A stretch of DNA of 59,830 nt, counting the filler, from Nitrospinae bacterium RIFCSPLOWO2_12_FULL_45_22 (GTDB lineage Bacteria; 2-12-FULL-45-22): the NCBI GenBank assembly GCA_001803565.1. It is 7 parts of 7 records of this genome, joined end to end, with 100 filler letters (N's around TTAATTAATTAA, not from the genome) between each part and the next. Parts side by side here need not be neighbours in the genome. Positions count along the whole stretch, not along the records: positions 6,841 to 13,359 come from MHDQ01000270.1; 6 more parts are not named here. One strand, written 5' to 3'. Positions 5,169-54,852 of the stretch are shown here, piece after piece. The first letter of the stretch is position 1. Each line of letters begins with the position of its first letter. Under the pieces are notes generated by a model, which did not search any database, was not told the DNA's origin, and saw only the letters and a list, made by a program, of their open reading frames with translations. The translations under genes were made by a program, and so were the position numbers.

Positions 5169-5424
5169 CTATTATTAAATTTTTTGTTTATTTTTAAAAC
5201 CTTTTCTTATATAATAAACAGAATAGCTTCCCCTGAGACAAAGAAAGCCTGCTCTTTGCAGGCCTGCAAAAGTATTAAAAACACGTACTATAAACTTATA
5301 GTATTATACTACAATTCTTCCTAAGAGTCAACCTTTTATTTAATTTTTTTATTAATTTTTCTCTTCATTTGACTTGCCTTTTGAAAGGAAGAAGTTTTAC
5401 CTAGTTGAAAAGGAGGAAAAATAT

Positions 5425-6740
5425 ATGAATGTCTTCAGGAAGGTCTGGGGTATTTTCTCTTCTAAGTCCTGGTGGTTAATAGGCAACCCTAAAGTAGAAC
5501 AGACACAGCGCTTAGAGATCCTAGACCATGCCCAGGCCATAGTAAAAGCTGCCCAGGATTTAGAGAGTATCGCAGTGGGTTATGCCCCATTAGCAGAGCT
5601 ATTATTCCCCGTAGGAGAGATATTTAAAGATAGGCCGGTAGGATTGGGTAGCCAGCGTATACCCTGGGAGCCCAGTGGGCTTCATACCGGTGGAACTTCG
5701 CCGGTAATCCTGAAAGAAGCAGGGGTTATCTTTGGATTAATCGGACATAGAGAAGCCCGGGATGACCTTGGCGAAGGCCCCCATCTCAATAAACAGATAA
5801 GAATAGCGTTGGATTATGGCATTATCCCTATCTTATGCTGTGGAGAGCCAAAAGGTTCCCTGGTAGAGTCAGAGACTACACGGGAAAAGGCTTTAAAAGC
5901 AGAATTACTACCAGCCCTCGAGGGGTTTACCGCCGAGGAACTCCTTCAGGGACAGCTCACCATAGCTTATGAGCCGGGTCATGTTATTGGGTTGGACCAA
6001 CCTGCAGATATGGGCTATATAAGGAGCGGATTCTCCCTGATAAAAAAGATTTTGCTGAAGCATAATCTGGAAGGCTTAGCTAAAAAGGGGAGACTGCTCT
6101 ATGGTGGTGGGGTAAATTCCGATACTATCCAGCAGGTATGGGGCCTGGATAGGCCGACCAAGGTCTTCTCGGGCGAGAACTGGGCAGGTTTTCTAGTAGG
6201 TAGGGCCAGTGCCTCACCAGACTTTATGGATATGATGGAAAAATGGCAAGCCAAATTAGGCCGGTATCGGGATAGGAGTAAGGTCTTCCTGATGGAGGAG
6301 GATAAGACGGGAGTCGAGAGGTTAGAAATACCTCAGATAGCCCCCCCCCAAAAGAAGGTTAGGGTAGCCGTCTATGGCATAGGCGAAGTGGGAGTTGGGT
6401 TTATAACCTCGGTCTTCAAAGAAGATAAAATAGACATTGTACAGTTGTTCAATATGGAAGTGGATGCAGAGGACATCCGGGCAAGGATATATAAGAGTCT
6501 GTTTATTGATAAAGATAAGGTATTTATAGATGACCACCATGTCGTGATAAAGGATGAGGTCGCCGTGCAAGATGAGATTGAGATTGATGGTGAAATCTTT
6601 AATCTAAGAAGCTTATTGAACAGCATGGTCAATGACCATAGCAAAATAACGAAGGTTTTACGGGAGCAGAAGATGCTGGTAACCCCGGCCCATGACCCCA
6701 GAGAAGCAGCCTCCCAGTTGGTAAAGGATATAGATATTGT
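5425..6740 (+). CDS. Divergent triosephosphate isomerase fused to a GAPDH-like NAD-binding domain (3' truncated at contig end)
   Basis: AGGAGG RBS before ATG 5425; TIM motifs IGNPK, GHREAR, ILCCGE, IAYEP, YGGGV, FLVGRAS; from about 6352 KVRVAVYGIGEVG..DIVQLFN..DAE..HHVVIKD..KMLVTPAHDP..DIDI, resembling the GAPDH N-terminal domain. Confidence 0.75.
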
Positions 6741-6840: not shown

Positions 6841-6842
6841 AT

Positions 6843-6974
6843 ATCTATAATGCCCACCTTAATCCCGATGTTTTCCCCTTCGACTTTACTATCTTTACCG
6901 GCAAAATCTCCGTAGAACGTATGCTTAAAGAACACCTTCTGGAATATATGGCTCAGAAAGAAAAAGGCCAATGA
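6843..6974 (+). CDS. 3' end of a cytochrome b (FdnI/hydrogenase cytochrome b-like) gene, not in the ORF track
   Basis: Manual translation [35 protein letters not shown]..stop resembles the HxYxxHLxP..FTG.IS....EHPLEY tail of this family. Confidence 0.65.
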
Positions 6975-6980
6975 ATATGA

Positions 6981-7103
6981 GTAACAGTTCAGCCCCTATC
7001 GAAAATGAATGTCATTCCGACCAAAGGGAGGAATCTTTATTTACCTCCGGTCTCGGAAGGATTTCTCGCTGCGCTCGAAAGGACAAAGAACCTGAACTGT
7101 TAC
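6981..7103. mobile_element. MITE-like element, family A, carrying a nested TGTCAT..GACA palindrome (7010-7085)
   Basis: Perfect 12-bp TIR GTAACAGTTCAG/CTGAACTGTTAC; 8-bp direct repeat GAATATGA on both flanks. Confidence 0.8.
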
Positions 7104-7113
7104 GAATATGATT

Positions 7114-7215
7114 TGTTGAATTATTCAGCATAATTAGGTAGCTTTAGAAAAATAGGTAAAAAACGAGCAAAGACATGTTGAATATTTCAGCAATATCATG
7201 TTGATTTATTCAGCA
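7114..7215. promoter_or_regulatory. Three near-palindromic sites TGTTGA-W5-TCAGCA, putative enhancer (UAS) for a sigma54 activator
   Basis: Copies at 7114-7130, 7176-7192 and 7199-7215, about 120-220 bp upstream of a -24/-12 promoter. Confidence 0.7.
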
Positions 7216-7335
7216 TTTTTTGGGGATTTAGCTTTATTTCGCTCCGCTTTTTCGATGTCTCTTTAGTCCTCCCCAAAATTTATCTTCAGAAAAATCAGTC
7301 CTTTCCGAACCAATAACCCGATAACCCCTTTGCTC

Positions 7336-7351
7336 TGGCACAGTTATTGCC
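7336..7351 (+). promoter_or_regulatory. Sigma54 (-24/-12) promoter
   Basis: TGGCACAGTTATTGCC matches TGGCAC-N5-TTGC with exact GG-N10-GC spacing, about 85 bp before the first gene. Confidence 0.8.
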
Positions 7352-7435
7352 TTTGAGATTAAGTGAGCCGCAAAGCTCCAAAGAGTCCAAGGGAAGGAAT
7401 GAAGGGTTATGGTTTTTAAAAGGAGGCGATGGTTT

Positions 7436-8191
7436 ATGAAACGTCAAATCAGATATCCAGCCACCATCATTGCTACCATTGTTATTGCCCTGGTAGCTAT
7501 CCCGGCCTTGGCAGTGTTGGGATTTATGTTGCGATATGTATTATTAGCAGCAATACCCATTGTCCTCTTGGGGTATGTCCTGGCCTATGCTGTAAGCCCT
7601 TGGGTAGGGAAAGTCTTTTCACAAGAAGCCCTCGATAGATCTATGTTGAATGGTTTTAAGGTGCCCAAAGGGGTCCTATTCCATCCCTTCCACAGTTGGG
7701 TAAAGTTAGAATCCCCAAAAAAAGCAGCTATTGGGGTAGATGACTTTGTGCAAAAGGTCTTGGGTCCGTTAGAAGCGATTGATACACCTCCGGTAGGGAC
7801 AAGAATCCAGCGAGAAGAAAACCTCTTTCAATTGAGGCGCGGAGACCGAACAGTAGATATAAAATCTCCCATTGCCGGTACCGTCTGTTCAGTCAATGAC
7901 AAGCTTTCTCGGTATCCTACCCTGGTCAACCAGTTCCCTTATGGTAAGGGATGGATAGTAAAACTCCGTCCGGATAATCTTAGTGATGACATAAGAAATC
8001 TTAGGGTAGCAAACGAGGCGCTGAAATGGTTTCGTGAGGAGTTGGAGCGATTTCAATCCCTATTGTCACCCCGTCCGCTCCAGGTCCAAATATTACAGGA
8101 CGGGGGTACAGTAGTGGATGACCTGTGGGCTTACCTAGATAATGACACCTGGTTGTCTATCAAGAAAAACTTTTTTAATAACGCGAGTTAG
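7436..8191 (+). CDS. Membrane-anchored GcvH-fold protein, lipoyl Lys absent
   Basis: Two N-terminal hydrophobic helices; FHPFHSWV..IGVDDFVQK..SPIAGTVCSVN..PYGKGWIVK; QDGG tail; AGGAGG RBS. Confidence 0.8.
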   Translation: MKRQIRYPATIIATIVIALVAIPALAVLGFMLRYVLLAAIPIVLLGYVLAYAVSPWVGKVFSQEALDRSMLNGFKVPKGVLFHPFHSWVKLESPKKAAIGVDDFVQKVLGPLEAIDTPPVGTRIQREENLFQLRRGDRTVDIKSPIAGTVCSVNDKLSRYPTLVNQFPYGKGWIVKLRPDNLSDDIRNLRVANEALKWFREELERFQSLLSPRPLQVQILQDGGTVVDDLWAYLDNDTWLSIKKNFFNNAS

Positions 8192-8307
8192 AAAGAAGAG
8201 CGGGAGTTTTTAGCCTGAAGAAGAAACAGTTCGGAAGCAACTGCTTGATGAAAGAGGATAAATAATAAACCTGAATCCAGTGCAAAATTATTTAGGGAGG
8301 AGCCGAA

Positions 8308-9216
8308 ATGGATCTCAAGAGAAGGGATTTTCTCAAAATAATTGGTTTAAGCACCGGAAGTGGACTTTTAGGTTGGGTGGGGACGGCTAATGCTTATGTA
8401 ACTAAACCTGATCCACATGATTCTGCAGCTATGTTAGTTGATACCACCAGGTGTGTCGGGTGCCGTACCTGTGAGATGGTTTGTGCCGAGGTGAATAATT
8501 TACCAGAGCCAGCTCTTTTGGGCGACGAATCTATCTTTGAGCAAAAAAGAACAACGGAAACATATGCTCACACGGTGGTTAATCGCTATCCTAACCCGAC
8601 AGGTGAGCCGGTATATGTCAAGACCCAATGTCGACACTGCAACGAACCGGCCTGTGCTTCTGCTTGCCTGGTAAAGGCAATGGAAAAGACACCGGAAGGT
8701 CCGGTTGTTTACCATGAGGAAAGGTGTATGGGATGTCGCTACTGCATGGTAGCCTGTCCCTTCTATATCCCAAAATTCGAATGGTCAAAAGCCGTTCCCG
8801 CTGTCCGCAAGTGTATATTTTGTTTTGAACGCCAGAAAGAAGGATTGGAACCCGCTTGTGCGGAGAACTGTCCAGCGGAGGCCCTTAAGTTTGGCAAGCG
8901 GAAAGAACTGCTTGAAATTGCCAGAACCCGCATCTACCAAAATCCTGATCAGTATATTCACCATATCTATGGAGAGCATGAGGTCGGTGGTACGGGGTGG
9001 CTGTATCTCTCCAATATACCATTCGAGCAATTGGGTTTCCGAATGGACCTCGGAACGAGGCCTTATCCAGAATTTACCAAAGGCTTTCTCACAGCAGTGC
9101 CCCTGGTGCTTCTTATTTGGCCAGCTCTGCTCGGAGGTGTATATGCCTTTACAAACCAACGAGAGCAAATGAACAATACAGAAAAAGCTGTTAGCCCAAT
9201 CAAAAAGGAGGTCTGA
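8308..9216 (+). CDS. Tat-exported 4x[4Fe-4S] protein, HybA/HmcB/NrfC-like, with C-terminal membrane anchor
   Basis: KRRDFLK Tat motif; CVGCRTCEMVC, CRHCNEPACASAC, CMGCRYCMVAC, CIFC..CAENC; HIYGEHEVGGT. Confidence 0.9.
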   Translation: MDLKRRDFLKIIGLSTGSGLLGWVGTANAYVTKPDPHDSAAMLVDTTRCVGCRTCEMVCAEVNNLPEPALLGDESIFEQKRTTETYAHTVVNRYPNPTGEPVYVKTQCRHCNEPACASACLVKAMEKTPEGPVVYHEERCMGCRYCMVACPFYIPKFEWSKAVPAVRKCIFCFERQKEGLEPACAENCPAEALKFGKRKELLEIARTRIYQNPDQYIHHIYGEHEVGGTGWLYLSNIPFEQLGFRMDLGTRPYPEFTKGFLTAVPLVLLIWPALLGGVYAFTNQREQMNNTEKAVSPIKKEV

Positions 9217-9218
9217 TC

Positions 9219-10451
9219 ATGGCCGAATACATTCAATATCCAGAGAAAATATATACTCCTCATTTATGGATTAGGGAAAAATTCCTTATGGGGATGAGTT
9301 TGTCCGCCTATATAAAGAAGCAGTTTACCCCGTTCAATGTTGTAGCTGGTCTCATCCTCCTTGTAGGACTGCCTTTTATCGCTCTCCGCTTCTCTCAGGG
9401 GCTTGCAGCGGTGACGAATGCCAATAGCGACTATCCCTGGGGGTTCATTCTTAGTTTCGGACTTTTTGCCGGGGTCCCTTTAGCCGCCGGAGGATATGTC
9501 CTTGCCTCTACTGTATACCTCTTCGGGCTTAAACAATATCATCCCCTACTCCGCCCTGCTATACTTACAGGCTTTCTCGGTTATTTCTTTGCAGTTGTGT
9601 ATCTACTCATTGACCTGGGACGTCCCTGGCGACTCCCCTATCCCATGTTTATTTACTACGGTCCCGCGTCGGTCCTGTTTCTGGTGGCCTGGCATGTGGC
9701 CCTATACCTATCGGTTCAATTTCTCGAGTTCTGTCCGGCTATATTCGAGTGGCTCGGTACAGAGAGATTCCGGCGGTGGGCCATGAGAATAACCATAGGG
9801 GCCACCATCTTCGGTGTGATCCTCTCGACCCTTCACCAGTCTGCCCTCGGTGCCCTCTTCCTCCTCGCACCAGGGAAACTTCATCCACTTTGGTACTCAC
9901 CGTTGATTCCAGTATTTTTCTTCATCTCAAGCATCTTCGCGGGACTTTCAGTGGTGATTGCTGAAAGTACCCTATCTAGCCGTTTCTTTAAAGACAAAGC
10001 TGACTACCACTATCTAGCGAGTCTCGACAACCTCACCCTTGGCCTTGGTAAAGCAGCTTCGGTTGTCCTCTTTACCTACTTTGGCCTGGAGGTAATTGGT
10101 GTTGCCCACGGGAACCACTGGGCCCTCCTGGGTACACCTTTTGGCTATTGGTTCCTCATAGAGATACTTATGTTCGTCCTTCTTCCTTGCTTTCTCTTTG
10201 CCTTTGGGACTCAGAAGAAGAAGGTAGGCCTTGTCCGCTTTACGGCTTTTCTAACTATCACAGGTATTATTTTCAACCGGCTTACGGTGGTACTTATTGC
10301 ATTAAACTGGAATCTGCCGCACCACGAAATTCCTTATTGGAAGGAATTTGTTATTGTTTTAACTATCATTACCATTCACTTGCTCACGTTCCGTTGGATC
10401 GTTAACCGGATGCCTGTCCTCCGGGAACACCCCGATTATAAAGGCATGTAG
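9219..10451 (+). CDS. NrfD-family integral membrane subunit, HybB/HmcC-like
   Basis: YPWG, DLGRPWR, LSTLHQSALGALF, LHPLWYS; about 10 transmembrane helices. Confidence 0.9.
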   Translation: MAEYIQYPEKIYTPHLWIREKFLMGMSLSAYIKKQFTPFNVVAGLILLVGLPFIALRFSQGLAAVTNANSDYPWGFILSFGLFAGVPLAAGGYVLASTVYLFGLKQYHPLLRPAILTGFLGYFFAVVYLLIDLGRPWRLPYPMFIYYGPASVLFLVAWHVALYLSVQFLEFCPAIFEWLGTERFRRWAMRITIGATIFGVILSTLHQSALGALFLLAPGKLHPLWYSPLIPVFFFISSIFAGLSVVIAESTLSSRFFKDKADYHYLASLDNLTLGLGKAASVVLFTYFGLEVIGVAHGNHWALLGTPFGYWFLIEILMFVLLPCFLFAFGTQKKKVGLVRFTAFLTITGIIFNRLTVVLIALNWNLPHHEIPYWKEFVIVLTIITIHLLTFRWIVNRMPVLREHPDYKGM

Positions 10452-10469
10452 AAGGGAGGAGATATTATT

Positions 10470-11177
10470 ATGGAACATCTATTTATGACTTCAGTCAAAG
10501 GAATAGAATATATAATAGCGGTGATATTTCTCTTTACCTTCATTGTTTTTTGGCGCGTATTAAATATTGGTGGGATTCCGGCCATGGAGTCCTTATCGGT
10601 TGCAGCCGGTGGAGTTGTAAAAAAGATAGGGGATATGGTTGATTGGTTTTTGGTTCCCGATCGGCTATATTTTCACCCCGGACATGCATGGGTAAAAGTA
10701 GAGGATGGTGATGTGGTGCGGGTTGGAATGGATGATTTTGCCCAAAAACTGGTAGGTAAGATTGACGCCCTCAACCTACCGAAGGTCGGCTCCACTGTGA
10801 GTCAAGGAGAAAGAGGGTGGACAGTCCATTTAGGATCAAAATCCGTTGATCTTCTTTCCCCAATAGATGGAAAGATCGTTGCCGTTAATGAGGCACTATT
10901 TAATGCACCGAAGCATATAAATGAGGCCCCTTATGAGGAGGGGTGGTTGATGAAGGTTAAAGTCCCGAGACTTTCGGCAAACTTAAAGAATCTCCTGTCG
11001 GGCAACCTGGCCAGGAGATGGATGGAAGAGGTGAGTGGTAATCTACGTTTAAGATTGGGGGCCAATCTTGGCTTGGTGTATCAAGATGGTGGTTTACCCG
11101 TTGAAGGGCTAGCCAAAAACTTGGATCGGGATAAATGGGATGAGATAGCAAAAGAATTTTTTCTGACTCTAGATTAA
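10470..11177 (+). CDS. Membrane-anchored GcvH-fold protein, no Lys at the canonical lipoyl position
   Basis: N-terminal KGIEY plus one TM helix; YFHPGHAWV..VGMDDFAQKLVG..SPIDGKIVAVN..PYEEGWL; VYQDGG tail. Confidence 0.8.
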   Translation: MEHLFMTSVKGIEYIIAVIFLFTFIVFWRVLNIGGIPAMESLSVAAGGVVKKIGDMVDWFLVPDRLYFHPGHAWVKVEDGDVVRVGMDDFAQKLVGKIDALNLPKVGSTVSQGERGWTVHLGSKSVDLLSPIDGKIVAVNEALFNAPKHINEAPYEEGWLMKVKVPRLSANLKNLLSGNLARRWMEEVSGNLRLRLGANLGLVYQDGGLPVEGLAKNLDRDKWDEIAKEFFLTLD

Positions 11178-11253
11178 TCAAGGGGGGTATGGAACTAACT
11201 CTCGTTTTTTAACTGGCAGAGCTGATTCTGCCACTGATAAGGAGGTGGCTATC

Positions 11254-11649
11254 ATGCAACGGTATTATGGCAGTACCAAGGTCAAGGCAGGGTTTTATTG
11301 GAACCCAAGAGCCTGGGATATAGCGCCTATACCAGGCAAAGGAGGGATATTACCGGGAGATATGGATACTTCTTATTTGAGGGTCCCTATGGTATTGATG
11401 CTTTTTGGCGCCCCGGTGGCAGGTCTGTTTTATGTGATCACCCTCCCAATTTACCTACCCTTAATCATTCTTGGCATAGCCTTTAACTTCCTTGGACAGA
11501 AAATTTACCAGTTGGTCCCAAAACCGGCATCCAAGTTAGTAGACAAATCAAGAAGTGATAATGGGGAAGTAATTTTTGACTCTCATCTGGGTATGGTATA
11601 TCCAGATGGTGGTTTACCTATGGAAGATGAGGCTGAAGATGAACGCTGA
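11254..11649 (+). CDS. Small membrane protein of unknown function with a C-terminal YPDGG motif
   Basis: GGAGG RBS; KVKAGFYWN..GGILPG, hydrophobic hairpin, tail HLGMVYPDGGLPME. Confidence 0.7.
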   Translation: MQRYYGSTKVKAGFYWNPRAWDIAPIPGKGGILPGDMDTSYLRVPMVLMLFGAPVAGLFYVITLPIYLPLIILGIAFNFLGQKIYQLVPKPASKLVDKSRSDNGEVIFDSHLGMVYPDGGLPMEDEAEDER

Positions 11650-12367
11650 AAGAAAGCGGATGCCTATTGTTCCTAATGGGGATTTAGAGTGTGTCTGGAT
11701 GTGGGCAGGGATTGTTACATATAAATTATGTGATTGCAACTATGAATGTGAGCACTGCAGTTTTGATAGGGCCATGAAAGAATGTGATTCGGTCCCTTTC
11801 CATGGGGAAGTAGGGGGTTACAAGCTCTGCCGCACCTTATTTTACCATTCAAGCCATACCTGGGCAGGGGTAGAAGAAGGTGGACATCTCCGTATTGGTC
11901 TGGATGATTTTGGTCAGAACATCCTGGGACCAATTCAAAGGATCTCCCTTCCAAAATTAGGAGCTAGAATAATGGAGGGGAGCATTCAGGTAAGAGGCCG
12001 GGGCATAGATGTTCCTCTATGCCCGCCTGCTGAAGGGTATATTGTTGAGGTGAATAAGCAATTGCTGACTTTTCCTGCCTTGATGAATAGTTACCCCTAC
12101 GATAAAGGATGGGTTGTCCTCATTCGGCCCGTTCATCTTTTGAAGAGCCTGAGGCAACTTTTTTATGGCTATCAAGCGGAAGAATGGTATCGGAGAGAGG
12201 TCTCCCGATTGGGAAGCGCCATTGCCCAGGTAACGCATCTACCGCCATCCAGGGTAGGCCCTACCATGCAGGATGGAGGCATTCCAATATTACAGATCCT
12301 CGATGCGATAGAGCCGAATGAAGCCTCGAAGATTATAAGACAATTTTTCATCCGTAACTGCAATTAG
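11639..12367 (+). CDS. Soluble GcvH-fold protein with N-terminal Cys-rich module, lipoyl Lys absent
   Basis: CVWMWAG..YKLCDCNYECEHCSFD; FYHSSHTWA..IGLDDFGQ..PYDKGWVV; TMQDGG tail. Confidence 0.8.
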   Translation: MNAERKRMPIVPNGDLECVWMWAGIVTYKLCDCNYECEHCSFDRAMKECDSVPFHGEVGGYKLCRTLFYHSSHTWAGVEEGGHLRIGLDDFGQNILGPIQRISLPKLGARIMEGSIQVRGRGIDVPLCPPAEGYIVEVNKQLLTFPALMNSYPYDKGWVVLIRPVHLLKSLRQLFYGYQAEEWYRREVSRLGSAIAQVTHLPPSRVGPTMQDGGIPILQILDAIEPNEASKIIRQFFIRNCN

Positions 12368-12470
12368 GACTTCTCCTATATTATCCCACCAAAAGATAAA
12401 GAAATGTAAAACCATGAATCTTATTGTTTACATTCGAGAGGCATTTTGTTCTGGAAATAGAATTTTATTT

Positions 12471-12601
12471 GGGTGTGGCTATTTTCGGTCAGAAACCAAT
12501 TAACCCTGTAGTGGCAGAGCTTGCTCTGCTAGGAATGTCGAGCAAGCTCGACCACTACAAATTGTATTATATAGGAGTTATGACAAATAATAGCCACACC
12601 C
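12471..12601. mobile_element. MITE-like element, family C, containing a GTAG-type REP doublet (12507-12559)
   Basis: 13-bp TIR GGGTGTGGCTATT/AATAGCCACACCC; 9-bp direct repeat ATTTTATTT on both flanks. Confidence 0.8.
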
Positions 12602-12912
12602 ATTTTATTTCATATGGATCAAACCTCTTGAATATCGGTTATGAGATGGGTAAAAATAATTTATTCAGGCAAAGCCCTGCTGTATGTGCCACTGAGGCAC
12701 ACCAAGTAAGAATGATATAGTATAATTATTTGCTATGATGGGGTTTTAGCCATGCATCCTTACATAGACTTTGGTTGGCGAAAGTACTGCACGATAATGA
12801 GTTGACAGTTGGTACGAGGTCTGATATAGTTATGAAAGAAAATAGAGTAATCCCCACCGAAAATTTTCTTTCTATCCTTTTATAGTGATAAACATCCTAT
12901 CTTTGATGGTGA

Positions 12913-13359
12913 ATGAGCATGCGTCCTTTTGCTTTTAACCTCTCCACTAAACTACTCATTTGCCTCATTGGCAGCATGGCGTTCATCTTTGGCATCATAG
13001 GGGTAATGAGTGTAAGAATGCACCGCCAGCATTTATTGGAAGCTATCGTCATGAGTGCCGACCGGACCAGCGATGTGATCAGGCGCAGTACTCGTTACTC
13101 CATGTTAAAAGATGAACGGAAGGTGGTCTACCAAATTATCAACACTATTGCCCATGAGCCGGGGATGATAAAGATCAGGATTTTCAACAAAGAGGGCAAG
13201 ATTACCTTCTCCACTGATCCACTAGAAATCAACTCCTTTGTCAATAAACAGGCTGAGGCCTGTTACGGATGTCATAGTCGTGCCCAGCCCCTAAGTAAGC
13301 TCTCCAGCCCAGACCGCTCCCGGGATTATTACACTCCGGATAAAAAACACGTCCTGGGT
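12913..13359 (+). CDS. N-terminal part of a membrane sensor (probable histidine kinase) with periplasmic CxxCH; 3' truncated
   Basis: TM helix, then IRIFNKEGKITFS..EACYGCH; the kinase domain lies beyond the contig end. Confidence 0.7.
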
Positions 13360-13459: not shown

Positions 13460-14990
13460 TCTTTTTGGGTTTATGGAATATAGTACCAGCCCTGCCTTCT
13501 GTCACTCCTGCCATATTATGGAGCCTTATTATCAGGCCTGGCGTGGCTCTTCTCATAATTTTGTTGCCTGTGTAGAGTGCCACTATCCTCCGGGAAAGCC
13601 CCAAACTATCCTCTGGAAAAAGTTCCAGGCCATGTCCCAGGTAGTTAAATATGTCACCCGGACTTACTCTTCTAAGCCCTATGCTGAGATAGACGATGCC
13701 TCCTGCCTGCGTTCCGAGTGCCATTCTAGCCGGCTCCTGATTGGTAAAGGGAAGGTGGTCACTGAATCGAATATCATTTTTGACCACCGTCCCCACTTGA
13801 TGGAAGAACGTCGGGACCGCCAGTTGCGTTGTACTTCCTGCCATTCGCAGATCGTAGTAGGTAGGCACGTAGAGGTTACCTGGGAAACCTGTATCTTATG
13901 TCATTTCCGGGGAAAGGTAAGTCCTAGGGGTGCTGAACCGATTGGTGGTTGTCTTGGTTGCCATAGAGTGACAGATAAACCTTTTACCCTGGCTGGTATC
14001 ACCAATACCCATATGAATATCCTTATGAATCGCGAGGGTGTATGCCAGGATTGCCACAGAAATGTTATCCAGGGCGAGGGGGAGGCCCTTCGAGACCGGT
14101 GTCTTATCTGCCATAACCAGCCAGAAAAGGTAGAGCGGATTGGGGAGCTACCCTTTATCCATGAGACCCATATAACCAAGCATAGTGTAGCCTGTTTTCA
14201 CTGTCATAAGGAAATGGAGCATAAAGCTACGGTAGTGCCGCGGTTTGAATATAATTGCAATACCTGCCACACTAAAACCCACTCCCCCCAGTTATTGTTA
14301 TACACTGGCAGGGGGGGGCAGGGATTGCCGGATATGCCCGGTGGTAAATATCAGGCCAATGTTGATTGTATGGCCTGCCACCCTAAGCCAAAAACCAACC
14401 CCAGTAATGGTTCTACCGAGATAACCTTTACTGGTTCCATTAACAGTTGTCCGGATTGTCATAATAAAAAGTTTGTCGAGATAGCAGATTCCTGGAAGAC
14501 TTTATCAAATTCAGCCTTTACTTATCTGGAGCCAAGGCTAAAGAATCTGAAGGCCAGGATAGAAGAAAGAAAGAAAAGCCCACCTTCTGATCGGAAAGAA
14601 ACCCTGGAGACTGCTCTGGCACGGGCGGAACACAACCTTTCGTTTGTCCGGGCGGCCGACGGTATCCATAATATTTACTATGCGGCCCAGATATTACGGA
14701 AGGTGAAAGAGGATTTGGAAGCGGTGGCAAAGGGACTTAATATTAAACTATCAAATCCTGATAACTCTCCCTTTGCCCTTGGTGGTGCTGATGGTTGTAA
14801 TATACTTTGTCACGATAAGATAGGGATCACCGTACCTCCCGAAACGGTTAAATATAAGGGGAAAGAGATGTCCCATACTGTTCATAAAGAGATGGGTTTA
14901 ACCTGTGAGAACTGCCATCGCTTTGACTGGCATAAGAAGGTCCAGTTGATCGCTAAACCGGAAGACTGTCAAACCTGTCATGAGATCTAA
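13460..14990 (+). CDS. Multiheme cytochrome c with NapC/NirT-like N-terminal domain (5' truncated)
   Basis: 13 CxxCH motifs plus CLRSECH and CNILCH; STSPAFCHSCHIMEPYY..W..SSH..VACVECH NapC/NirT pattern; DGIHN.YA in a helical segment. Confidence 0.9.
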
Positions 14991-15128
14991 TTACCCATCT
15001 AATAATCCTTCAACTTTGTTTGACCTTAAAACATTGATGACCTGGATGGTTACCATAACCATGACAATAATAGCTTAGGTAGGGACCTATTTTCAACGCA
15101 ACTTTAGTCTGACTGAGAGGGCAATAAT

Positions 15129-15734
15129 ATGGGAAAGGTCAGGTATGGAATGGTAATTGATCTGCGGCGCTGTGTAGGGTGCCATAGTTGCGTAGTAGCC
15201 TGTAAAGTAGAGAATGAGGTCCCGGTCGGTGTATGGAATTCCTGGGTAAAGATCATCGAGAAGGGTAAATACCCTAAGGTCGGTAAATTTTTTCTGCCCT
15301 CTTTATGTAACAACTGCCAACGGGCTATCTGCGTAACCGTCTGTCCTACTAAGGCGTCATACCAACGAGAAGATGGCATCGTCATGGTTGATCCGCATAA
15401 GTGCATCGGATGTCGCTACTGCATGGCCAGTTGTCCTTACGAAGTCCGCTATATTGATCCCTTGAAGAGATGCGCCCGAAAGTGTTTCTTCTGCTCTCAT
15501 CGGGTAGATGCAGGTATTCAACCAGCCTGTGTACAGACCTGTCCGGCTAAGGCCCGCTCTTTCGGTGATCTGCATGATCCTGGCAGTGAAGTAGCCAGGC
15601 TGATCGCTAGCAACTCTGTTATGGTGCTTAAGCAGTGGATGGCTACATATCCCTCAGTCTTTTATATCGATATGGATATGGATGTAGCTGATCCCTTGCG
15701 GGGGAGTGAATTCAAGTGGAGAGAGGGGGAGTGA
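15129..15734 (+). CDS. 4x[4Fe-4S] electron-transfer subunit, PsrB/TtrB/NrfC-like
   Basis: RYGMVIDLRRCVGCHSCVVAC, CNNCQRAICVTVCP, CIGCRYCMASCP, CFFC..CVQTCP. Confidence 0.9.
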   Translation: MGKVRYGMVIDLRRCVGCHSCVVACKVENEVPVGVWNSWVKIIEKGKYPKVGKFFLPSLCNNCQRAICVTVCPTKASYQREDGIVMVDPHKCIGCRYCMASCPYEVRYIDPLKRCARKCFFCSHRVDAGIQPACVQTCPAKARSFGDLHDPGSEVARLIASNSVMVLKQWMATYPSVFYIDMDMDVADPLRGSEFKWREGE

Positions 15735-15740
15735 GATACC

Positions 15741-16655
15741 ATGGAGCTAAATGTCCTATATAATGTCCATCATGAGATGCCTATCGGTGTGGTCATAGCT
15801 GCCTATTTCTATATGGTGGGACTACATGCCGGGTGTTCTATTATATCAATCAGTGCCACCTTGATTGGCAGGACTGAATATAAGCCGGTAGCCAAGATCG
15901 GGGCAATCGGGGTAATAATCCTCTTTACCCTTGCCCCTATCCTATTGATAGTTGATCTGGAACAACCCTTACGCTTTTGGTACCTATTACTTCGCTTTAA
16001 CCTCGGTTCTCCCATAACCTGGGGCACCTTCTTTCTCATGTCTTATCCTTTAACCACCACTATATATATCTGGCATTTATTCCGGGGAAATGTCCTGGCC
16101 TCTAAGGTTTGGGGGGTAATAAGCCTGCCCTTGGCTGTGGGGGTGCATGGATATACTGGTTTTATCCTGGGTATGGGCAAGGCCCGGGTCCTTTGGAACA
16201 CTGCTATCATGCCGGGTTATTTCTTATCATCGGCTATGGTCTCTGGCTTAGCCCTGATGATCATACTTGCCATCATCAGATTTTATATCATCTCCCACCG
16301 CCTAACACCGGAGCAGAAAGAGGTGGATCATAACCTGATTGTGGGACTCACCCAGATTATGGCAGCCTTTATTGCGGTAAATCTATTCTATGTCTTTTGC
16401 GATATCATCGTAATGTATTACCATACCGAAGATGCCTTTGAAAATGTAGAGTTAGTGAGACTGGGGAAATTTAGCTTTCTCTATATGTGGGTGGATAATT
16501 TTTTAGGGAACGTGATCCCTTTAGTTACTATATTTCTCCCCCGGGTACGCCGGGCCTTACCGGTGCTGGCTATTATTTCACTCCTGGCCCTCATAGGGGT
16601 TTTTGTTATGCGTTATGTCCTGGTGGTTGGTGGGCAATATATTCCATTAAGCTAG
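15741..16655 (+). CDS. NrfD/PsrC-family membrane anchor
   Basis: DLEQPLRF, SPITWG, HGYTG, LWN, RYVLVVGGQ; multiple TM helices. Confidence 0.9.
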   Translation: MELNVLYNVHHEMPIGVVIAAYFYMVGLHAGCSIISISATLIGRTEYKPVAKIGAIGVIILFTLAPILLIVDLEQPLRFWYLLLRFNLGSPITWGTFFLMSYPLTTTIYIWHLFRGNVLASKVWGVISLPLAVGVHGYTGFILGMGKARVLWNTAIMPGYFLSSAMVSGLALMIILAIIRFYIISHRLTPEQKEVDHNLIVGLTQIMAAFIAVNLFYVFCDIIVMYYHTEDAFENVELVRLGKFSFLYMWVDNFLGNVIPLVTIFLPRVRRALPVLAIISLLALIGVFVMRYVLVVGGQYIPLS

Positions 16656-16693
16656 AAGGATTCCTGTTCAAATAACCAGGATTCAAAAAAAAT

Positions 16694-16758
16694 GGTTTTG
16701 AGATTTGTATTTAGGATTTTGATATTGTTTTGGATTTAGTCATTAGGATTTAGAATTT
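16694..16758. repeat. Degenerate short tandem repeats (GATTT/ATTTAGG-like)
   Basis: ggttttgagatttgtatttaggattttgatattgttttggatttagtcattaggatttagaattt. Confidence 0.5.
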
Positions 16759-16805
16759 GTTTAACCGGGTTTCTCTCAGTAAATGTAACATCATCAGCAA
16801 GGGGG

Positions 16806-18985
16806 GTGTTTAGGATGCCAGATTTTAAAAGGCGGGATTTTTTGAAGCTCGGGCTGGGGGCTAGTTCACTGTTGGCACTGGAAGGCTATAGCAGTCTGCT
16901 TGGCACTGCTGAGGGAGAAGAGTTAGCATGGGGTGGTAAACAGGTCTGTCGGACTACTGGGAAGACACGCCATGCCATCCCTAGCACCTGCCTTAATTGT
17001 TTTGCCCGCTGTGGTATCCTGGGCTATGTAGATGCCGGGAGGTTGGTAAAGATCGAGGGAGACCCTGGAAATCCCAATAACCAGGGGAAGATATGTGCCA
17101 AAGGGCAGGCCGGTATTAACCTGGAATATGATGTTGATAGAATACTCTATCCATTAAGGAGGATAGGAAAGCGTGGTGAAGGGAAATGGGAACGGATATC
17201 CTGGGAAAAGGCCTTGCAGGAGGTAGCAGATAGGCTAAAGACCATCCGGGGGGGTGGGAATCCCGATGAATTTGCCTTTCATAGCGAGCGGGATATAACT
17301 ACCCAGTCCTTTGCCCGGCGTTTCCTGGATGTCTTTGGGAGTACCAGCATCCTGAATCATACTGCGTTAGGAGGGGCGAATAAAAAGATCGCTCGCCAGC
17401 TCACCTGGGGGGCCGATATAGATATAAATGATGTAGCTTATAGTGAATATATCCTCAATTTTGGCGCTAATCCCTACGAGGCGCATATCCTCAGAACCGC
17501 TTTTATCCAGCGAATTGCCTCCACCAGATCAATTCGGATGGTAGGAGAAAAGATCTTGAATAAGGCAAAATTGGTTACCTTTGATTCCAGATGTTCCATC
17601 ACGGCTGGGAGGAGCGATGAATGGATCCCCGTTATGCCTGGTACTGACGGGATAGTGGCCCTGGCTATGGCTCGTGTCATTATGAATGAAGGGTTGTATG
17701 ATAATGATTTTATTACTAAATGGTGCAACTACCCAGTGGATAAGCTAGCACAACACTTACAACCATATACCCCCGAGGTAGCCCAGAAGATAAGTAGTGT
17801 TCCCGCCCCTGATATCCGAAGAATTGCCCGGGAGTTTGCTACCGCTAAGCCCGCTACCACTATTTCAGCCGGCGGTGTTACTGAACATATTAATGGCGTC
17901 TATACGGAGCGTTGCATAGCCCTCCTTTCTGCTATCACAGGCAATATAGATATTAAGGGTGGGGACTGTCTTCCCCGTACTTATCAATTTTCTCAGCCGG
18001 AACCAATACCCCTGGAACCCCCCCGGGAGAGTAAGCTCACTCACCCACAGGAATTTCCCCTGGCCCATCACATGACTGCTACCAATGTCCTCTCGATGAT
18101 AAAGGAGGGGAGGCAAAAGATAAGCGCCTATATGATCTATCAGCATAACCCTGCCTATTTTGATCCAGAGTGTAGTATACACGCAGAAATATTACAAGAC
18201 GAAAAGCTGATCCCTTTTTTTGTGGTAATCGATTCATATCTGAGTGAGAGTGCGGCCTTGGCAGATATGATACTTCCGGCCGCTACTTATTTGGAGCGGC
18301 TAGAGCTGGAATCACCACCTTCATTTGAGATGGTCCCCTTTATTAGTATCAGACAACCCATAGTCAGACCCCTGGGTGAGGCCCAGCCTTTCATGGACAT
18401 TCTTATTGAGCTGGCAAGAAGGATCGGTGGCGGAATGGAGGGATATTTTCCCTTTGCCACCGCCGAAGATTATTGGCGGGCCTGTATATCCCATATCGCT
18501 GCCTTGGTTAAGGTAGGCGGATTGGATTATCTGAAAGAACATGGGGTTTGGTTTGACCCAGAAGCCAAACCCAACTATAAATCTTACGAAAAAGAAGGCT
18601 TTGAGACCCCATCGGGTAAATTTGAGATATATTCCAAAATCTTAGAAGAAAAAGGGTTCAATCCCCTGCCGGTATATGAGCCTATCCCCCAACAACAAAA
18701 GATGAAGAATGATCAATTCATTTTGATCACCTTTCAGGAAAATGTCCATACCCATGGATACACAAACAATGCGATACTCCTAGCAGAAATTACTCATAAT
18801 AATAAGATATGGATAAATTCCGATGTAGCTCGGGCAAGAGGGATAAAGAGGGACGACCTAATAGAGGTCCGCTCAAAGATTGGCTCAATAAAGATCAGGG
18901 CTCACCCTACCCCAGGAATACATCCCATGGTGGTGGCAATATCTGATAGCTGTGGTCATTGGGAATATGGCAGAATAGCCCAGGC
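16806..18985 (+). CDS. Tat-exported Mo/W-bisPGD oxidoreductase catalytic subunit, Psr/Phs/Ttr/Arr group (3' truncated)
   Basis: KRRDFLK; FS0 motif CLNCFARC..CAKG; YPLRR.GKRGEGKW; ADMILPAATYLER; TPSGKFEIYS. Confidence 0.9.
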
Positions 18986-25425: not shown

Positions 25426-26025
25426 TTGCTTTCGCCGGAAGAACGGAGCATAATATATCAGAGACTTGCGCAGGTATTCTCTTATCCTGGCGAGGAAGAT
25501 TATGCCGGGTTAGTTGATGATAGCTACCTGGAGCCCTTTTTATTACTGGGCAGGGATGTGGAGTCCCTCCTTTCCAAAACCAGTTACCCGGTATCGTTAG
25601 AAGAATTACAACAGCAATATACTGGCTTGTTCGATGTAGGCAGGGGTGGCAGCGGCCCTCCTTGCCCCTTGTATGAAGGCCCTTACCGGCCGGATTGGGG
25701 CCGGAGTAAGATTTTTGAAGAACTTTTACGTTTTTATGATTTCTTTGGCCTGGAGCTATCCCCTGATAGCCGAGAACTACCAGACCATTTGACTGTAGAG
25801 TTAGAGTTCATGCATTTTCTTACCTTCCAGGAGGCCAGCTCTGAAGACCCTGCACCCTTTCAGCGTGCTCAGCGGGACTTTCTTAATCGTCATCTCGTTA
25901 ACTGGGTACCAATGCTCCGCCAGAGGATAGATGAAGTGGCTATATCTGACTATTTTAAGGCTCAAGGATTTATTTTGGAGTCTTTTATCCGGACTGAGAT
26001 AATAACCCTGCAGGATATAACCTAG
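25426..26025 (+). CDS. TorD/DmsD/EbdD-family molybdoenzyme maturation chaperone
   Basis: YTGLFD..PCPLYEG, FYDFFGL, ELPDHLTVELEFMHFL, FLNRHL..W. Confidence 0.9.
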   Translation: MLSPEERSIIYQRLAQVFSYPGEEDYAGLVDDSYLEPFLLLGRDVESLLSKTSYPVSLEELQQQYTGLFDVGRGGSGPPCPLYEGPYRPDWGRSKIFEELLRFYDFFGLELSPDSRELPDHLTVELEFMHFLTFQEASSEDPAPFQRAQRDFLNRHLVNWVPMLRQRIDEVAISDYFKAQGFILESFIRTEIITLQDIT

Positions 26026-26240
26026 TACTTCGTTACATTAAAATGTTTCCAATGCGTAACCAAGTCTTTGCCACGAAGTCACAAAGACACCAAGGAAACG
26101 TAAAACGCAAAGCTAAAAGTGCAAAGCTGAGGAATAATTACCTTAATTTTACACTTTGCATTTTAAGCTTTGAGCTTTTTAGTGCCTTTGTGGCTAATAC
26201 AAGTTTTTATTGTATACTTTTTTATGAAACGCTCTACTAG
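26022..26240. mobile_element. MITE-like element, family B (CTAG-flanked), with nested palindromes
   Basis: CTAG at both ends; imperfect IR TACTTCGTTACATTAAAATGT versus TAGAGCGTTTCATAAAAAAGT; the internal AAAGCTAAAAGTGCAAAG module recurs near 42028. Confidence 0.6.
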
Positions 26241-26306
26241 TTAGTTATAAAGTGTTAGTAGTAGTAATTGTTAACGACAACTGATACTGATGATATGGAG
26301 GTGGCC

Positions 26307-39186: not shown

Positions 39187-39585
39187 TTACAACCAATCTA
39201 TTTCTACGAGTTCTTCAACTTTTTTGAATTCAGGGTCTCCGGTAGCAATAGCGGCTTTTTCCTTTAAAGCGGTAGCGACAGCGAAGCAATCGGCATAAGA
39301 AATAGGGTATTTGGCCTTGATCCTTGAAGCTTTTATTATTTGCTCAAAGGAGTTAGAGAGGATCTCTATTGGTAGACTTGGAAGGATAACCTCTATAAAA
39401 TAGTCAGCATAGCCAGAGTCTCGCTCTCTTGCAAGGATATAATAAGTCTCCCCGATATTCAACTCGTTCATTATAAGAGGATTATCCTCAGACGAAGATA
39501 ATAGATCCTTTACCCTTTGATATTTATCTTCTTTTTTTAGATAGGCGAGAAGGCTGTAAGAATCGAGCAATTTCTTTTTCTTCAC
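39187..39585 (-). CDS. vapC: PIN-domain toxin
   Basis: LLDSY.LLAYL, NIGE.YY, ISYADCFA, TGDPEF. Confidence 0.88.
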   Translation of the reverse strand: MKKKKLLDSYSLLAYLKKEDKYQRVKDLLSSSEDNPLIMNELNIGETYYILARERDSGYADYFIEVILPSLPIEILSNSFEQIIKASRIKAKYPISYADCFAVATALKEKAAIATGDPEFKKVEELVEIDWL

Positions 39586-53800: not shown

Positions 53801-54852
53801 AAAAAAAGAGTGGACTAGGGCTCACTGGAGAGGTAAAGGGTAACCGCTTAACCCCAGAGATAAAGCTTGAGCTGATGGAACTGATAGCTTCTCTTCCCTG
53901 GCCAGGTAACAAGAGTTGCCGGGTATTGAAGTTAAAACGGGGCCGATATTGGCGATGGAAGAATAGATATGATGGGACTCTGTCTTCTTTGGAGGACAGG
54001 GCCCCTATCGCCCAGATTCGTCCCCATGCCCTTTTACCAGAGGAAAGGCAAGAGATCATCTGCTTTGCCTTAGATAACCCTAAAGAAAGACATAGGAAAC
54101 TAAGCTTTCTCATGATTGATCAGGATATCGGCTATTTCAGCCCCTCTACGGCTTACCAGGTCTTAAAGAAGGGGGGGGCCAAACCCTGGGTATCTCTTAA
54201 AAAGCCTATGAGAAGACAAGACATTGAAGTTACAGGCCCTAACCAGGTCTGGTACATAGATATTACCTATCTTAAGGTCAACGGGAGAAATTGGTATCTC
54301 ATACCGGTTCTGGATAAATACTCTCGATTGATAGTGTACTGGGAACTCTGTTGGACGATGACTGCTCATGATGTTAAACGGATAGTAGACTTTGCCCTGG
54401 AAAAGGAAGGGCTTCATCTCCAGGAACAAAAGCCTAAGATCATCAGCGATAATGGTACCCAGATGGTAGCCAAAAGCTTCAAAAAATTCCTTAAAGACCT
54501 GGGGATTAAACATATCCGTATCGCCTATCGCCACCCTGAAAGTCAAGGGCGGATCGAGGTCTTCTTTAAGACCTTAAAATACGAATGCTTCTATCATGGG
54601 GAATACCAAAATGCTCATGAAGCCCATAGGGACATAGAAGCCTTCATTCACTATTATAACTACCAAAGATTACATCAGGGAATAGGTTTTGTTACCCCTT
54701 ATCAAAAACATATTGGCCGGGCTGATGCTATAATTGCAGCTAGAAAGGCCAAACTCGCCCTGGCCAAAGAATTACGGAAAGCCCTCAATAGGGGAGAAAA
54801 GGTTAAAGCGAACCCCATGCCAGAGATGGTCGGTCATAGTGTCTTAATTTAA
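53797..54852 (+). CDS. Transposase OrfB (rve/DDE integrase core)
   Basis: NQVWYIDITY, DKYSR, SDNGTQM, QGRIE.FFKTLK.E, YN..RLH..IG..TP; frame is open from the T3A9 run. Confidence 0.88.
   Translation, partial: LKKKSGLGLTGEVKGNRLTPEIKLELMELIASLPWPGNKSCRVLKLKRGRYWRWKNRYDGTLSSLEDRAPIAQIRPHALLPEERQEIICFALDNPKERHRKLSFLMIDQDIGYFSPSTAYQVLKKGGAKPWVSLKKPMRRQDIEVTGPNQVWYIDITYLKVNGRNWYLIPVLDKYSRLIVYWELCWTMTAHDVKRIVDFALEKEGLHLQEQKPKIISDNGTQMVAKSFKKFLKDLGIKHIRIAYRHPESQGRIEVFFKTLKYECFYHGEYQNAHEAHRDIEAFIHYYNYQRLHQGIGFVTPYQKHIGRADAIIAARKAKLALAKELRKALNRGEKVKANPMPEMVGHSVLI

Follow-up and report, generated by a model that had tools for sequence, protein, structure and literature searches.

GcvH-fold proteins without the lipoyl lysine beside an HmcBC-type quinone module with its own sensor and predicted sigma54 promoter, in a Nitrospinae bacterium and related loci from many phyla

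Why should a bacterium encode three relatives of the glycine cleavage H-protein (GcvH) beside a membrane module of the kind that exchanges electrons with the quinone pool? The question arises from a 59,830-base stretch of DNA (hereafter the window) of Nitrospinae bacterium RIFCSPLOWO2_12_FULL_45_22, in which contigs are chained via spacers of 44 N, TTAATTAATTAA and a further 44 N. The locus is confined to one piece of the window, positions 6841-13359 (6.5 kb), and remarks on "the contig" therefore span 6.5 kb only. A sequence-only reading had described seven co-oriented genes there, and all are present on the contig with the properties it gave: a membrane-anchored GcvH-fold protein (G1), a four-cluster iron-sulfur (FeS) protein, an NrfD-type membrane protein, a second GcvH-fold protein (G2), a small membrane protein, a third GcvH-fold protein (G3) and the start of a sensor histidine kinase (Table 1). 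No gcvP, gcvT or hydrogenase gene is found on the contig; the statement that it holds no molybdoenzyme is likewise true but carries little weight, as the contig is so short and other pieces of the window carry two. The cassette is a quinone module of the NrfCD/HmcBC type whose accessory and regulatory genes are without known precedent, and in it an old carrier fold appears to have taken up a new, non-carrier job.

The locus was compared with related loci, here the best 80 of 329 stretches that encode a G2 relative (pattern scan, one genome per species). FeS and NrfD genes stand directly upstream of G2 in 64 of the 67 loci with at least 2.4 kb of upstream sequence, and because the same order recurs to this extent the arrangement is more than chance. 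This neighborhood analysis bears out the conservation of GcvH-like genes beside a hybAB/hmcBC-like pair. Of 65 loci, 45 have a further GcvH-like gene after G2. G2 itself is the most conserved accessory subunit, with 726 detectable homologues of similar length that are typically 50–60% identical. According to the record titles, more than 10 phyla are represented among the related loci, the carriers comprising Nitrospinae, Schekmanbacteria, Methylomirabilis, Rokubacteria, Syntrophales and other Thermodesulfobacteriota, Myxococcales and Deferrimicrobia, together with Gemmatimonadota, Acidobacteriota, Bacteroidota, Ignavibacteria, Calditrichia, Limnocylindria and Krumholzibacteriia; syntrophs and NC10/Rokubacteria are also among them. 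DNA nearly identical to the window turned up in 20 runs on soil, groundwater and sediment that belong to 16 studies, two of them being candidate sources. Two loci, L027 (a small motif-bearing membrane protein, G2 and G3) and L040 (three G genes), have no adjacent FeS/NrfD pair, and the H-fold set can thus be encoded apart from the membrane module.

Clustering of neighboring open reading frames (ORFs) across the 80 loci returned only one other common family, a 180-residue archaemetzincin found in 49 loci. In targeted searches of the same loci, an NtrC-type sigma54 activator was found in 59, an archaemetzincin in 57 and a HAMP-HisKA-HATPase kinase in 52, and many of the loci without one of these are short contigs. 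A small c3-type cytochrome and an acetyl-CoA synthetase were found in 6 and 4 of the 80 loci, respectively. No other family occurred in more than 14 loci; the next commonest neighbors were multihaem cytochromes c (families in 11, 8 and 6 loci) and cytochrome b561 (7 loci). The sigma54 regulator and the archaemetzincin had been overlooked in the sequence-only reading, as had two points described below, namely the LGxTMxDGG motif common to the cytoplasmic components and the nearer relationship to HmcBC.

The proposal that G1, G2 and G3 are non-lipoylated GcvH-fold proteins proved correct as far as can be judged from sequence, since the canonical lysine has been replaced in all three and the GcvH fold is intact. 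A total of 203 GcvH-like domains from the window and the related loci were aligned with two canonical GcvH proteins, in which the lipoyl lysine lies within V-K-A-V. In the aligned rows, the lipoyl-lysine column holds D in G1, S in G2 and G in G3, and a lysine occupies it in only 2/80 G2 orthologues, 16/69 G1-like proteins and 1/46 G3 proteins. One position past this column, G1 and most G1-like proteins have an Arg and 63 of the 80 G2 orthologues have a Lys (the others R, I or another residue); G3 has no basic residue at the hairpin position. The lipoate-bearing lysine of the E. coli H-protein aligns with the Ser of G2, with the Lys of G2 one residue on. Matches to GCV_H are strong (E 1e-16 to 1e-27) and for all three proteins exceed the Pfam cut-off, and scores for the gcvH equivalog TIGR00527 (82.4 bits for G1, 85.9 for G2 and 52.9 for G3) fall below its cut-off of 115.85. 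Every match to NF045810 ("GcvH-related protein") was under the cut-off in three related genomes and the controls. Canonical GcvH genes coexist with cassettes in two genomes, G002 and G003.

Structural models agree with the family assignment. The AlphaFold2 model of G2, built from an 86-sequence alignment, has a mean predicted local distance difference test score (pLDDT) of 79.8, and its top structural matches are solved GcvH proteins (target TM-score 0.82, best E 3e-12). For G3, the model has a mean pLDDT of 78.3, falling below 50 in the Cys region, and the GcvH strand pattern is again visible. In the G3 family (34 sequences) a C-x12-C-x5-C-x2-C motif is invariant (C28, C41, C47 and C50) and is likely a metal site. 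The Cys-rich N-terminus of G3 matched no Pfam family in the 34 members at E up to 1, and an Atlas search with G3 gave no informative match (best 0.77). In a tree of all 203 GcvH domains (none dropped), rooted on the two canonical GcvH proteins, the window's G1 belongs to a clade of 24 tips (support 0.97) that includes 17 sitting directly before an FeS gene, and its G2 to a clade of 37 tips (support 0.86) that includes 31 sitting directly after an NrfD gene; for G3, no clade among the 203 tips reached the thresholds set.

The distribution of charge around the transmembrane (TM) helix predicts how G2 is oriented. In the G2 family (n=85), the mean number of K+R is 0.27 before the helix versus 2.33 in the 15 residues after it, which predicts an N-out, C-in protein. 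In a natural fusion, P0150, a signal peptide and four CxxCH motifs precede all the parts of G2, from its N-terminal motif and TM helix to its GcvH fold and tail; because a tetrahaem cytochrome c is thereby attached to the TM helix of G2, the H-fold domains are placed in the cytoplasm. The short G2 N-terminus, with its conserved K-G-x-E-Y (K10, E13, Y14), faces the periplasm, which is the side of the FeS protein and, from family knowledge, of the NrfD quinone site. G1 has a single hydrophobic stretch of 55 residues at its N-terminus, taken as two TM helices.

Near their C-termini, G1, G2, the small membrane protein and G3 have in common the motif (L)G-x-(T/V)-(M/Y)-x-D-G-G. Its D-G-G does not vary among 86 G2 sequences and is modeled at pLDDT < 50, a behavior typical of segments that become ordered only upon binding. 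The DGG motif is present in 166 of the 202 GcvH-like ORFs of the related loci, and small TM proteins or ORFs with the C-terminal motif occur in 21/80 loci. The small membrane protein of the window has no family match; its counterparts in relatives are P0121 and P0122. With a profile of the tail only, 1910 cluster representatives were matched at an E threshold of 0.001, of which 336 passed 1e-10, and all 12 matches of unusual length that were scanned by Pfam also hold GCV_H.

Domain fusions bear on the role of the fold. Fusions of a receiver domain (REC) to GcvH were found as six proteins in four related loci and as an Atlas cluster of 83 members, and one such protein (P0127) has a G2-type tail. 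At L059 a complete haem-c kinase and receiver are fused to GcvH, at L053 GcvH is fused to HisKA, and at L020 and L036 an acetyl-CoA synthetase is fused to GcvH. The H-fold is constant and the fused anchor, signaling domain or enzyme varies, a pattern expected of a docking or regulatory domain. The suggestion in the sequence-only reading that these proteins act as adaptors or signal couplers gains comparative support, chiefly from the fusions and also from the sigma54 promoter described below, which fits the neighboring kinase and regulator, although the coupling itself we still only infer. Two other types of GcvH-like fusion were also seen. P0394 (1242 residues, Anaerolineae) carries two tandem lysine-less GcvH-like domains with a GlcD-type flavin adenine dinucleotide (FAD) oxidase and an HdrD-like FeS/CCG module, and is a separate recruitment of the H-fold to a thiol/disulfide-type oxidoreductase. 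P0395 (571 residues) and an Atlas cluster of 61 members join a GcvH-like domain to PBP_like_2, a domain resembling periplasmic binding proteins.

The 16 Cys of the FeS protein fall into four cluster motifs, a C-terminal TM helix spans residues 256-282, and its best solved relative is FdnH (E 2.4e-31); a sequence search detected no solved structure for the NrfD-type protein. The pair belongs to the NrfD superfamily (NrfD, 84 versus 25.8 bits) and to the NrfC-type four-cluster ferredoxins (Fer4_11, 76.7 versus 26.2 bits). Among NCBIfam models, the FeS protein is closest to HmcB (379.9 bits versus an equivalog cut-off of 420) and the NrfD-type protein to HmcC (478.9 versus 550). HybA (228.7 versus 263) and HybB (221.2 versus 450) are second-best, also below their cut-offs, and NrfC and QrcC/QrcD score far lower than the Hmc and Hyb families. 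The earlier description of a HybAB/NrfCD-like module thus holds for the NrfCD-type pair but not for its closest family, which is HmcB/HmcC, ahead of HybA/HybB and NrfC/NrfD.

The Hmc and Nhc systems of Desulfovibrio are transmembrane redox complexes (HmcABCDEF, NhcABCD), and the Hmc operon holds the multihaem HmcA, the cytochrome b HmcE and the HdrD-like HmcF. These systems share with the cassette a periplasmic four-cluster FeS protein, an NrfD-type subunit, a small membrane protein and an operon-encoded regulator, and the small c3-type cytochrome of the 6/80 related loci, which lies upstream, is a further likeness. In contrast, the cassette has no 16- or 9-haem cytochrome, cytochrome b (HmcE) or HdrD-like HmcF; in place of those subunits it has two to four non-lipoylated GcvH-fold proteins, to which are added a dedicated kinase with a putative haem-c sensor, a sigma54 regulator and an archaemetzincin, and it occurs far beyond the sulfate reducers. 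No HmcA-, HmcE- or HmcF-type gene was found on the contig or in the Pfam-annotated loci L015, L007 and L078, and no hydrogenase gene was found in these three loci; L078 has a small c3-type cytochrome. HybA/HybB-type pairs pass electrons to or from the quinone pool, normally beside a catalytic subunit, and NrfD-type subunits carry no cofactor, their usual quinone site lying on the periplasmic side. HybA and HybB of E. coli hydrogenase-2 resemble the cassette in combining a Tat (twin-arginine translocation)-exported, tail-anchored FeS protein with a cofactor-less NrfD-type quinone subunit; the cassette differs in having extra GcvH-fold subunits and no hydrogenase genes, and in scoring under the HybA and HybB cut-offs.

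Lipoyl-type folds have been put to other uses before. GcvH and LbpA carry lipoate on a conserved Lys. LbpA, the lipoate-binding protein of sHdr sulfur oxidation, is encoded beside sHdr and lipoate-ligase genes; it and GcvH-L, from the SirTM operon, are lipoylated H-protein paralogues. Like the proteins described here, they are H-protein paralogues moved from glycine cleavage into redox or stress systems; theirs are lipoylated, whereas G1, G2 and G3 are without the lysine and have TM anchors (G1, G2), a Cys4 domain (G3) and the DGG tail. No sHdr, lipoate ligase or synthase, sirtuin or macrodomain gene recurs among the neighbors of the related loci. The N-terminal barrel-sandwich hybrids of NqrA and RnfC offer another parallel, as lysine-free lipoyl-like folds that are structural cytoplasmic parts of membrane redox complexes. 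The resemblance is weak (NQRA_N at E 7.9e-5 in a REC-GcvH protein; low-probability Foldseek matches) and amounts to remote fold similarity only, whereas the G proteins are clear GCV_H homologues.

The sequence upstream of G1 points to dedicated regulation. The predicted sigma54 promoter TGGCAC-N5-TTGC is the only exact match within the 59.8-kb window, where 0.13 would be expected. In related loci, TGG[CT]A[CT]-N5-TTG[CT] is found on the operon strand up to 1.8 kb upstream of the FeS gene in 20/63 loci; these upstream stretches hold 20 of 40 sigma54-like sites in 4.8% of the strand length searched, a tenfold enrichment. A looser pattern, TGG-N9-TGC, found in 16/60 loci with 0.15 expected per region, was dropped, as several of its matches were chance-like. 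Three 17-mer repeats lie 137-222 nt upstream of the sigma54 promoter and are candidate enhancer (upstream activating sequence) sites for a sigma54 activator. A related pattern, TG[TC]TGA-N5-TCA[GA]CA, occurs at 6 sites in 1156 kb of related loci, 4 of them up to 2.2 kb upstream of an FeS gene, in 3 loci. Ahead of the kinase, the sigma70-like site has 11/12 consensus matches and is the best of the contig. The simplest reading is that a constitutive sensor operon switches on a sigma54-dependent output operon.

Table 1. Features of the cassette contig, in window coordinates.
Feature	Position	Strand	Remarks
Imperfectly palindromic 17-mer TGTTGA(A/T)T(T/A)(A/T)TTCAGCA, three direct copies	7114..7231	+	starts 7114, 7176, 7199
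Predicted sigma54 (-24/-12) promoter TGGCAC-N5-TTGC, TGGCACAGTTATTGC	7336-7350	+	86 nt before G1 start codon
Ribosome-binding site of G1, AGGAGG	7421-7426		
G1, membrane-anchored GcvH-fold protein	7436-8191	+	GCV_H 85.9 bits; without lipoyl lysine; C-terminal ILQDGG
FeS protein, Tat 4x[4Fe-4S], tail-anchored, periplasmic, HmcB/HybA-like	8308-9216	+	Fer4_11; twin-arginine leader
NrfD-type quinone-interacting integral membrane subunit, HmcC/HybB-like	9219-10451	+	PF03916, 84 bits
G2, bitopic GcvH-fold protein	10470-11177	+	GCV_H 96 bits; 1 TM helix; helical tail with VYQDGG
Small membrane protein, 134 residues, hydrophobic hairpin	11245-11649	+	C-terminal LGMVYPDGG, then acidic tail
G3, soluble GcvH-fold protein	11639-12367	+	GCV_H 60 bits; N-terminal Cys4 motif; TMQDGG tail
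Sigma70-type promoter-like site TTGACA-17-TATAGT, extended TG	12802..12830	+	83 nt upstream of kinase; consensus match only
Sensor histidine kinase, N-terminal 149 residues	12913-13359 (contig end)	+	TM helix and periplasmic domain, CYGCH at residue 117

The contig holds only the N-terminus of the kinase, and the activator gene would lie off the contig. The CxxCH motif is kept in 47 of 48 full-length orthologous kinases. For PF21563, a periplasmic c-haem sensor domain of the Geobacter chemoreceptor type, the window fragment scores 19.3 bits against a cut-off of 27 and the L078 orthologue 35.8, and the sensor region matches the chemoreceptor sensor chain 3b42 (E 1.9e-5), which we take to be a haem-c domain. 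The kinase core is closest to ZraS and AtoS. The elements of an NtrB/NtrC-type system are found as a promoter in the window and as the domains of a HisKA-HATPase kinase and a REC-AAA+-HTH activator in relatives. A precedent is Geobacter CbcBA/BccR, described in the passages on it as a sigma54- and receiver-regulated, redox-potential-specific quinone oxidoreductase. It resembles the cassette as an inner-membrane quinone oxidoreductase with a sigma54 promoter and a receiver-domain activator, and its induction depends on redox potential. According to the same passages, CbcBA is a bc-type cytochrome rather than an FeS/NrfD pair, and they make no mention of a GcvH-fold protein, haem-c kinase or archaemetzincin. 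In the Syntrophales loci L007 (19132-20659, minus strand), L009 and L012, a Ni_hydr_CYTB cytochrome b561 and a multihaem cytochrome c adjoin the kinase/regulator/protease block, and this pair, whose families occur in 7 and 8 of the 80 loci, resembles the Geobacter CbcBA arrangement.

The archaemetzincins of the related loci are genuine members of their family. A passage of PMC3427221 gives the archaemetzincin motif as HExxHxxGxxHCx4CxM...CxxC, and HExxHxxGxxH is intact in 55 of the 57 copies found in related loci; the L015 protein scores 155 bits versus the 145 cut-off of the archaemetzincin model NF033823. In three whole genomes that were searched, the cassette copy is the sole M54 gene in two. 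In the third, the complete Gemmatimonadota genome G002, 2 of 3 M54 genes belong to a pair of paralogous cassettes that each have a kinase and a regulator of their own. One of the G002 loci (L090; G002:C1:888000-906000) is a second, diverged full cassette with G1-like, FeS, NrfD, G3-like, kinase, regulator and archaemetzincin genes. The third G002 archaemetzincin was considered as a marker of a third cassette and rejected, as it is surrounded by housekeeping genes. Among 14 control genomes, Peptidase_M54 was found in three archaea only.

Taken together, these results can be assembled into a working model, to which we would give roughly an even chance: the cassette is a self-regulated Hmc/HybAB-like quinone:periplasmic-cytochrome module whose H-folds serve as cytoplasmic docking or regulatory subunits. 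The membrane kinase, through its putative periplasmic c-haem domain, would monitor the periplasmic redox state or a small ligand and would signal to an NtrC-type sigma54 activator, the gene for which lies beside the kinase in relatives. The activator, presumably bound at the upstream repeats, would fire the promoter ahead of the G1, FeS, NrfD, G2, small membrane protein and G3 genes. The FeS protein and the NrfD-type subunit would then make up an electron module that links quinone and periplasmic cytochromes and has no catalytic subunit, as family knowledge and the multihaem cytochrome neighbors and fusions suggest. G1, G2 and the small membrane protein may be anchored beside the NrfD subunit, their C-terminal parts lying on the cytoplasmic side; their topology is supported, and contact with the NrfD subunit is what we infer. 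G3 would be soluble, with its Cys4 metal site. The H-folds would be not lipoyl carriers but a docking or regulatory face of the module, linked or recognized via LGxTMxDGG, and through them signaling proteins or enzymes could be coupled to the module, as the domain fusions suggest. Lastly, the archaemetzincin, which is catalytically intact and in relatives shares a locus with the kinase and regulator genes, probably belongs to the system and may act on some component of it.

Several observations weigh against this model. The regulator and the protease are extrapolated to this organism from relatives, since neither is on the contig, and a recognizable upstream sigma54 site was found in only 20 of 63 related loci. 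The next-position lysine is kept in most G2 orthologues (63/80), and might be modified; if the Cys4 site of G3 binds a redox cofactor, as it may, G3 would be more than an adaptor. The REC-GcvH fusions within the loci are without the DGG motif, and DGG is therefore not needed by every family member. Furthermore, 3 of 67 loci (L027, L040 and L053) have no FeS/NrfD pair ahead of G2, and the association is therefore not obligatory in cis.

A different, somewhat unlikely reading is that the cassette is mainly a signaling device, in which the HmcBC-like pair, instead of bearing the bulk of respiratory current, probes the redox state of the quinone pool or periplasm and the bitopic G2 and the other H-folds relay its state across the membrane to the kinase and regulator, with feedback control like that of ZraP or PspA on their sigma54 systems. 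GcvH+tail units fused to REC, to HisKA or to a whole kinase-REC would fit such a relay, as would the layout of G2 (periplasmic K-G-x-E-Y, one TM helix, cytoplasmic domain), the provision of each paralogous G002 cassette with its own kinase, regulator and protease, the lack of any catalytic subunit conserved nearby and the kinship of the kinase core to ZraS and AtoS. However, the FeS, NrfD and G genes lie behind the sigma54 promoter and are therefore outputs rather than constitutive sensors; a four-cluster ferredoxin and a ten-helix membrane protein would make a costly sensor, and the frequency of multihaem cytochromes as neighbors and fusion partners suggests real electron traffic. It is more doubtful that the H-folds carry a new covalent group and thereby take the place of HmcE/HmcF as the arm that transfers electrons or acyl groups on the cytoplasmic side. 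The group might be acyl or lipoyl-like and sit on the basic residue beside the old site or, as a variant, a C-terminal Gly-Gly might be exposed by archaemetzincin and activated by an acetyl-CoA-synthetase-like enzyme. The K or R conserved one position past the canonical lysine in the G1 and G2 families speaks for this improbable scheme, and so do the co-occurrence of an invariant, poorly modeled DGG loop with a conserved metalloprotease, the ANL-type adenylating enzymes fused or adjacent to GcvH-like genes in 4/80 loci, and the fusion of a G2-related domain to an HdrD-like module in one protein. Against it, G1 and most G1-like proteins have Arg as the residue in question and G3 has none that is basic, so that a lysine-linked cofactor is not general; the adenylating enzyme is missing from 76/80 loci, lipoate ligase and synthase are not recurrent neighbors, and cofactor-less NrfD-type subunits leave no evident electron path to the cytoplasmic side.

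The archaemetzincin also allows a proteolysis-gated transmembrane relay, a proposal we consider a long shot, in which the invariant, flexible LGxTMxDGG of the H-fold and small membrane proteins is the archaemetzincin recognition or cleavage site. The cut would free the C-terminal helices or bare a Gly-Gly end, thereby switching the coupling between the quinone module and the kinase and regulator. If true, this would provide the first physiological archaemetzincin substrate and a new cofactor-free role for the H-protein fold. Finally, the cluster might be a fragment of an Hmc, hydrogenase-2, Nrf or molybdoenzyme operon with its catalytic genes past the contig, as could be argued from the 6.5-kb contig, from the top family matches to HmcB/HmcC and HybA/HybB, and from the molybdoenzymes on other window contigs. 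We consider this very improbable: in related loci, including long ones of up to 10 kb on each side, no hydrogenase, HmcA/E/F-type, molybdopterin or HdrD-type (CCG) gene recurs beside the operon, and for this reason the fragment explanation was rejected. The scores below the HmcB, HmcC, HybA and HybB equivalog cut-offs and the separate FeS/NrfD partners of the window's molybdoenzymes point the same way. A self-regulated quinone module with docking or regulatory H-folds remains the reading we prefer.

GcvH-like subunits with NrfD-type modules, receiver-GcvH proteins and a bacterial context for archaemetzincin were not found described in the full-text literature (mostly non-subscription, main texts), in agreement with the statement of the sequence-only reading that it knew of no functional characterization of the arrangement. 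Text searches of an NrfD-like review (PMC8076601) and a cable-bacteria paper (PMC13047784) returned no passage describing it. NrfD-type modules are a basic unit of anaerobic and aerobic respiratory chains, described so far with catalytic or cytochrome partners, and the cassette, which hundreds of species-level genomes of soil, sediment and groundwater origin contain, would add a new class of accessory subunit to them if our interpretation is true. The lipoyl-carrier fold would likewise prove reusable as a docking or regulatory domain, and archaemetzincins would gain a concrete genomic context. The cassette is also a compact, self-contained unit of sensor, promoter and output.

Other contigs of the window carry genes that were noted in passing. 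At 13473-18985, a 505-residue multihaem cytochrome c (NapC/NirT N-terminus and c3/c7 domains) is encoded with a second four-cluster ferredoxin, a second NrfD protein and a Tat molybdopterin oxidoreductase; these genes resemble those of a full Psr/Ttr-like respiratory complex with no relation to the cassette and, lying on a different contig, were rejected as part of the system. At 25426-29162, a NarJ-like chaperone adjoins a 965-residue molybdopterin oxidoreductase, the second molybdoenzyme of the bin. For a ribosomal protein S2 encoded on another piece, identity to named relatives does not exceed 67%, a Nitrospinae metagenome-assembled genome coming first and Tectomicrobia second. At 5374-6740, a triosephosphate isomerase domain lies within an ORF of at least 455 residues that reaches the contig end, its C-terminal extension having no family match. 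An rve-type integrase from an insertion sequence element (53875-54849) and a PIN-domain gene (39190-39585) are found on further contigs of the window.

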